A DNA stretch of 64,000 bases from Escherichia coli (GTDB lineage: Bacteria > Pseudomonadota > Gammaproteobacteria > Enterobacterales > Enterobacteriaceae), in assembly GCF_003019035.1 (NCBI RefSeq), contig NZ_CP027447.1; one strand, 5' to 3'. Below the pieces are notes generated by a model. The model had not been told where the DNA came from. It made no database searches and saw only the letters and a program-made list of their open reading frames with translations. A program made the translations under genes and the position numbers. Shown piece after piece: positions 45,729-46,667 of this stretch (within the stretch, counting starts at the first letter, position 1; every line of letters starts with the position of its first letter).

Positions 45729-45739
45729 CATTTTTACCT

Positions 45740-45757
45740 GTTATGTTATAACATAAC
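45740..45757. promoter_or_regulatory. Zur-box-like perfect palindrome upstream of ykgM-ykgO
   Basis: GTTATGTTATAACATAAC is an 18-bp perfect palindrome 12 bp upstream of the ykgM start; consistent with the known Zur regulation of this operon. Confidence 0.6.
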
Positions 45758-46667
45758 TATAAAGATACATGCTCATCCGGATCATTTCAACACCCAATCC
45801 CTGTGACTATTTGTGGGATGTGGAATTTCCGCAACGGGGAAGTCTGAAATTGTTAGCAGCCATTGGCGACGCTCCCATAAACGCCTGGATGAGTGATTGA
45901 TGATGGTTTCGCTGAGAGTATGGATTTTTCGAGAATGGAGGCTATCTCCACTTTACTGGCCGATGATTTATCGCAGTTTGATTGATTACCTGACAGCGTA
46001 TATTCCTCTCCCACGGATATAATAATTACTTACAAAAAAGGGAGAGGATGCATATTTTAAATATCACTGAAGTGAACAGTTTATTGCCGTTATTAATAGA
46101 AATGGAGAAATAAATAGGCGTATTCTACAATTGCGACAAAAACAACGATATTAATCAGTTTATGACTGATTTGCTGTACTTTATTCTCTTTCATTGGTAC
46201 TTCCTCGCTTTAAAAAAGAGTGCACTTCGTAAGTGCCCTTATATAAATAACGAGTTTGGTCAACCAATTTTTTGACATGTATCACAAATTTGAATAGATG
46301 TATTACATCGGCTATCTTTTATTGCCCCAACGTCATTGATATATGTCGCCTGAAGTCAGTTCCGGGAATGAGTCTGATCTCAAGATTGGCCCAGCCCTGG
46401 CGTTGATTGGCGCTGAGGAGCATATCGCATCTCATCGTAATGTCGTATCTCCTGGGGTGTTATACAAGATATCGTTGTAGGTAACCAGGGAGAGGAATTG
46501 AGTTCTATTAAACCGTCAACTATGCCGGATACATACTGGATTACACTGCAGGCACGCCTTACGAGAGAACGTGCCGCAGTGACGGGTTAATTATCTGAAA
46601 GAATTTGTGAGGCTGTATCGGTTACTCATTGGTTTGATAGTTTTACTCTCGGGAGAGTAATAGATAT

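Follow-up and report, generated by a model that had tools for sequence, protein, structure and literature searches.

The perfect 18-bp palindrome located directly upstream of ykgM in the Escherichia coli DNA studied here (a stretch of 64,000 nucleotides, hereafter referred to as the window) is almost certainly the core of an operator for Zur, the zinc-loaded repressor of the Fur family, within the ykgM-ykgO promoter. Repression of ykgMO by Zur through the operator at 45739-45758 is already known and belongs to textbook E. coli zinc homeostasis; a structure-guided consensus, affinity measurements and reporter data have all been published. A preliminary description, prepared from the letters of the sequence alone, had interpreted the palindrome as fitting zinc-responsive repression of this ribosomal paralogue operon by Zur. 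This interpretation holds, as the site is the published ykgMO (L31p) Zur operator, and it confirms that a real operator was recognisable from raw sequence by a first-stage reader.

Position of the palindrome in the ykgM promoter

The coordinates of the site and its neighbouring features are compiled in Table 1. GTTATGTTATAACATAAC is a palindrome without a spacer, its axis being located between 45748 and 45749. It is the sole perfect palindrome with arms of at least 9 nt in the 64-kb window, where the runners-up have arms of 7 nt, and it is invariant in nine sampled Escherichia sequences. The preliminary description had placed a perfect 18-bp palindrome within 45732-45760, which is indeed where it is found; the rest of this interval holds the ykgM leader. 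The palindrome sits between the predicted -10 element (45767-45762) and the Shine-Dalgarno sequence, the AGG of which (45739-45737) directly abuts it, in agreement with the earlier notion of a palindrome next to the ribosome-binding site. Similarly, the end that had been given as 12 bp upstream of the ykgM start corresponds to 11 nt (45729-45739) between the palindrome and the ATG at 45728.

The predicted ykgM promoter matches 9 of 12 consensus positions, and the TTG of its -35 element is invariant in seven sampled E. coli genomes. The operator starts 4 nt past the predicted -10, and the predicted start zone falls within the palindrome arm on the promoter side. In this layout, the predicted start and most of the leader (about 26 nt) would lie under the operator. 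A footprint of about 30 bp would have one end at the edge of the -10 and the other at the Shine-Dalgarno sequence, and Zur probably covers both the predicted start site and the -10 edge. The palindrome had been described as overlapping the promoter. This applies to the predicted start, which lies under the palindrome, and to the footprint, the edge of which touches the -10; the -35 and -10 hexamers themselves are located outside of the palindrome. The accessible literature yielded neither a mapped transcription start of E. coli ykgM nor Zur ChIP data; the exact start, and with it the precise steric mechanism, is inferred here from where the predicted -10 lies. The Zur box is found at the predicted core promoter of zinc-starvation genes, namely those for the type B proteins L31 and L36.

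An alternative promoter using TATAGT (45761-45756) as its -10 was considered and rejected: there is no -35 at a distance of 16-18 nt, TTGAAA is 23 nt away, and the promoter scan did not return this hexamer.

Table 1 Features of the ykgM-ykgO promoter region, with positions given in the window
Feature	Position	Strand	Basis
ykgO, type B ribosomal protein L36	45325-45465	-	RefSeq; NCBIfam NF002021, 91 bits vs cutoff 70
ykgM, type B (zinc-free) ribosomal protein L31, 87 aa	45465-45728	-	RefSeq; NCBIfam NF002462, 122.9 bits vs cutoff 86
Shine-Dalgarno AGG, its A being operator position 20	45737-45739	-	Sequence; AGG invariant in Escherichia
Expected Zur footprint, approximate, ~30 bp	45734-45763		Published size, placed symmetrically about 45748/45749
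20-bp site for two Zur dimers, TGTTATGTTATAACATAACT (+ strand)	45739-45758		1 mismatch to TGWNAYRWTATAWYRTNWCA
Perfect 18-bp palindrome GTTATGTTATAACATAAC, almost certain core of the Zur operator	45740-45757		Sequence, skeleton fit, Escherichia invariance
Zone of the predicted transcription start, 5-8 nt past the -10	45754-45757	-	Position of the predicted -10
Polymorphic 4 nt between -10 and palindrome; TATA in the window (coding strand)	45758-45761		Nine sampled sequences
Predicted -10, TATCTT	45762-45767	-	Promoter scan; TAnnnT at equivalent position in 80 species
Predicted -35, TTGAAA, 17-nt spacer	45785-45790	-	Promoter scan; TTG conserved across 80 species, matching spacing

Agreement with Zur-box models

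As ways to check its reading, the preliminary description had named a comparison with the Zur-box consensus and the znu operator, a Zur EMSA, and expression under zinc limitation. With respect to the consensus, Gilston et al. 2014 used the Zur-znuABC crystal structure and three operators to define an E. coli Zur box for two dimers, TGWNAYRWTATAWYRTNWCA, as well as a skeleton, RNNNYRNNRYNNYRNNNY (PMC4219657). The 20-mer at 45739-45758 fits this box with one mismatch, located at the outer position 45758, and represents the only match with up to two mismatches in the window. The skeleton with its central TATA is present in the ykgM site on both strands. At three mismatches, the window holds additional matches at 6631, 60991 and 63864 as well as a shifted self-overlap at 45734, which is at chance level (five matches with up to three mismatches found vs 2.1 expected). 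No second Zur box was found in the ykgR-ykgM intergenic region.

The older gamma-proteobacterial 23-mer consensus, GAAATGTTATANTATAACATTTC (Panina 2003, cited after PMC4219657 and PMC2706843), gave no match at up to three mismatches, the best one having six. The core TGTTATA/TATAACA, which is common to GAAATGTTATANTATAACATTTC, is present at the ykgM site, where one half aligns at a time. The poor fit has its origin in the symmetry of the ykgM site, the axis of which runs through a base step and not through a central base. We take the failure of GAAATGTTATANTATAACATTTC as a difference in symmetry register and not as an argument against Zur; the structure-based motif has since replaced the 23-mer.

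Published Zur binding and repression

The EMSA probe Cy5-L31P (PMC4219657, Table S2) is identical to window positions 45727-45773 in 46 of its 47 bases. The sole difference resides at 45758, just outside the palindrome and at the outer position 20 of the 20-mer, where the + strand carries a T in the window and a C in K-12. Palindrome, leader, Shine-Dalgarno sequence, -10 and -35 of the K-12 ykgMO operator are identical to those of the window. This K-12 probe was bound by Zur with the tightest apparent Kd among four E. coli Zur operators (0.025e-18 M^2), so that the suggested EMSA is already available in the literature; in the same study, in vivo repression of ykgM by Zur was 560-fold (PMC4219657). 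The unit that Zur recognises spans 20 bp and accommodates two dimers, and protection at the L31p operator extended over about 30 bp (PMC4219657). As to the extent of the operator, the palindrome thus stands as its core, but the 18-mer is not the whole unit.

The data on zinc limitation point in the same direction: a ykgM-lacZ fusion was silent in the wild type and almost 1000-fold up in a zur deletion or upon derepression by TPEN (PMC7297116). In E. coli Nissle, ykgM was induced about 2500-fold by the zinc chelator calprotectin, and the ykgM promoter has been built into a calprotectin biosensor in this probiotic strain (PMC10410751). The fold values given here were all obtained in E. coli strains other than that of the window. 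Binding, affinity and the size of repression are taken from this literature on the K-12 sequence; our analysis adds the identity of the probe, the fit to the consensus, conservation and specificity, all as judged from sequence. We assume that the one-base difference at 45758 (T instead of the C of K-12) is neutral for Zur.

The ykgM site shares the 20-bp architecture, the central TATA and the R-N-N-N-Y half-elements with the znuABC operator, for which the crystal structure of (Zur2)2-DNA was solved, and with the zinT operator. Each of the two has 15 of 20 bases in common with the ykgM site, which answers the suggested comparison with znu. The ykgM operator is the most symmetric of the four operators, with 9 of 10 symmetric pairs compared to 7 in znu and 6 in zinT, and by apparent Kd it was reported to be bound about 300 times more tightly than znu (PMC4219657). 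The ykgM operator serves a single promoter and not a divergent pair. An orthologous Zur site is located at ykgM-rpmJ2 of Yersinia pestis, where the footprint overlaps the -10 (Li et al. 2009, PMC2706843). In this other species, however, repression was much smaller, 4.7-fold on a plasmid fusion (PMC2706843).

Conservation of the site across species

The ykgM locus was sampled with one genome per species, yielding 80 loci that range from Escherichia to Serratia, Photorhabdus, Vibrio and Pseudoalteromonas. A Zur box is present upstream of ykgM in 80/80 loci, with zero to two mismatches in 79 of them and three in the remaining one (L049), and no relative was seen among the 80 loci that had lost the site and yet retained a Zur-regulated ykgM. 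The match usually ends 11-13 nt before the ykgM start codon. All sites with up to two mismatches occur within 60 nt upstream of ykgM, and none was found elsewhere in the 336,589 bases of the 80 loci.

When the 80 loci were aligned on the centre of the site, information content was high from -13 to +10. In addition, TAnnnT occurs at -18 to -13 and TTG at -41 to -39 from the site centre, which corresponds to a sigma-70 promoter with a 17-nt spacer. Upstream of the -35, no conserved elements were observed across genera beyond about -45 from the site centre.

In the 80 species, a module of only about 65 bp is kept upstream of ykgM, consisting of a GGGTTG-type -35, a 17-nt spacer, the -10 and the Zur box. 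Beyond this module, the upstream sequence and the neighbouring genes vary by genus (loci L002-L081). It looks as if the operon, its promoter and its operator moved or were kept together as a single compact unit.

Alternative explanations for the palindrome

The palindrome may be read as acting at the level of RNA, where a hairpin in the ykgM 5' leader would modulate translation or mRNA stability. If transcribed as a whole, the palindrome would give rise to a 7-bp hairpin (-6.1 kcal/mol, z = -3.16). The predicted start, however, is located inside the palindrome, and the remaining leader folds at just -2.0 kcal/mol (z = -0.74). Moreover, the Shine-Dalgarno sequence stays unpaired in the hairpin fold, and no match to an Rfam family was obtained. 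The orthologous sites argue in the same direction: only three of 39 distinct 20-mers contain a perfect 18-bp palindrome, and changes on one side that break the symmetry are far more frequent than compensated ones (about 94 to 3). The centre and the half next to the promoter, TGTTATGTTATAACA, are near-invariant, and the half nearer the Shine-Dalgarno sequence drifts. Judged by this pattern of substitutions, selection acts on the protein-binding core TGTTATGTTATAACA and not on perfect symmetry or an RNA hairpin, and we consider a function as RNA very improbable. The selected element is an asymmetric 15-bp core inside the compact promoter-operator module of about 65 bp.

An operator for another regulator, such as Fur or a different Fur-family protein, might be expected to look similar, as all Fur-family boxes are AT-rich inverted repeats of similar size. 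Yet within 45721-45780 the 19-bp Fur box is matched with nine mismatches at best, and the central TATA of the site has been described as telling Zur boxes from Fur boxes (PMC4219657). Published genetics and EMSA name Zur (PMC4219657, PMC7297116), and full derepression has already been reported in a zur deletion in which fur was intact (PMC7297116), leaving hardly any room for a regulator other than Zur. About equally remote is the idea of a chance palindrome without function. Some 18-bp perfect palindrome occurs in about 25% of windows simulated by a first-order Markov model of the 64-kb window, and palindromy alone is therefore weak evidence. In contrast, no more than 0.01 matches to this specific sequence are expected in the window at up to three mismatches, and it recurs in 80 species at an equivalent position ahead of ykgM, with no further occurrence in the flanks.

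Proposed mechanism of repression

As an operator of Zur, the site would function as follows. At sufficient zinc, two Zn-Zur dimers would bind cooperatively to opposite faces of 45739-45758 and protect about 30 bp. Because the site is located directly downstream of the -10 and over the predicted start, Zur bound at this position may exclude RNA polymerase or block open-complex formation and initiation, by which the operon would be kept silent. When zinc becomes scarce, Zur would give up its zinc and leave the DNA, allowing strong transcription of ykgM-ykgO. The derepressed operon would then supply the ribosome with the zinc-free paralogues of L31 and L36.

Variable positions beside the operator

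From the start codon to the far end of the palindrome (45728-45757), 4718 E. coli genomes carry one and the same sequence. The adjacent four nucleotides at 45758-45761 are variable between two flanks that are fixed in E. coli, with six alleles in nine sequences (TATA, TATG, TGTG, TACG, TACT and TATT on the coding strand), and E. albertii has one extra base in this stretch. The allele of the window is rare: of 5426 complete E. coli genomes, 25 carry it, compared to 3089 with the K-12 allele. It converts TATGGT into TATAGT, a near-consensus, -10-like hexamer at the edge of the operator. There is a slim chance that this rare allele tunes basal or derepressed ykgMO expression, or the affinity for Zur, in a lineage-specific manner; that the polymorphism is important at all is unlikely. 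Tuning of a tightly switched promoter by 45758-45761 is the sole reading that goes beyond published knowledge.

The ykgM-ykgO operon and its genomic surroundings

The stop codon of ykgM (TGA) and the start codon of ykgO (ATG) share one nucleotide (TGATG, minus strand, 45463-45467), which suggests that the two ribosomal paralogue genes are translationally coupled. Three bases upstream of the annotated ykgM start, an alternative in-frame ATG (45729-45731) gives rise to an 88-aa form in the list of open reading frames. This upstream ATG (45731-45729) is replaced by ATA or AAA in E. coli GF43, in the divergent E. coli L003 and in E. albertii. Its lack of conservation supports the RefSeq start at 45728 as the true start of ykgM.

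Over the 801 bp surrounding the site (45300-46100), identity to E. coli SCU-301 is 100%, and some 5,000 complete E. coli genomes match at 95% or more. In SCU-301, the locus has the order rclRABC, fdeC, ykgR, ykgM-ykgO, ecpR-E, ykgJ, yagU and proAB, which is the standard neighbourhood. The window is ordinary E. coli chromosome, with the rcl genes, fdeC, ykgR, ykgM-ykgO and the ecp operon. About 370 of the 5426 complete E. coli genomes are without any match to the ykgM promoter region. The region also occurs in 12-14 plasmid-labelled records (e.g. NZ_AP027498.1), one of which has a size of just 10.6 kb; these may be true plasmid copies or assembly artefacts.

Opposite to ykgM, an open reading frame of 43 aa (45769-45900, + strand) begins just upstream of the ykgM -10 and is probably spurious. 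The E. coli genome H7 has a 'hypothetical protein' annotated within the 801-bp match, which may correspond to this reading frame. Just downstream of ykgO and on the opposite strand, the matching RefSeq genome carries a frameshifted 'hypothetical protein' pseudogene (45116-45290, + strand).
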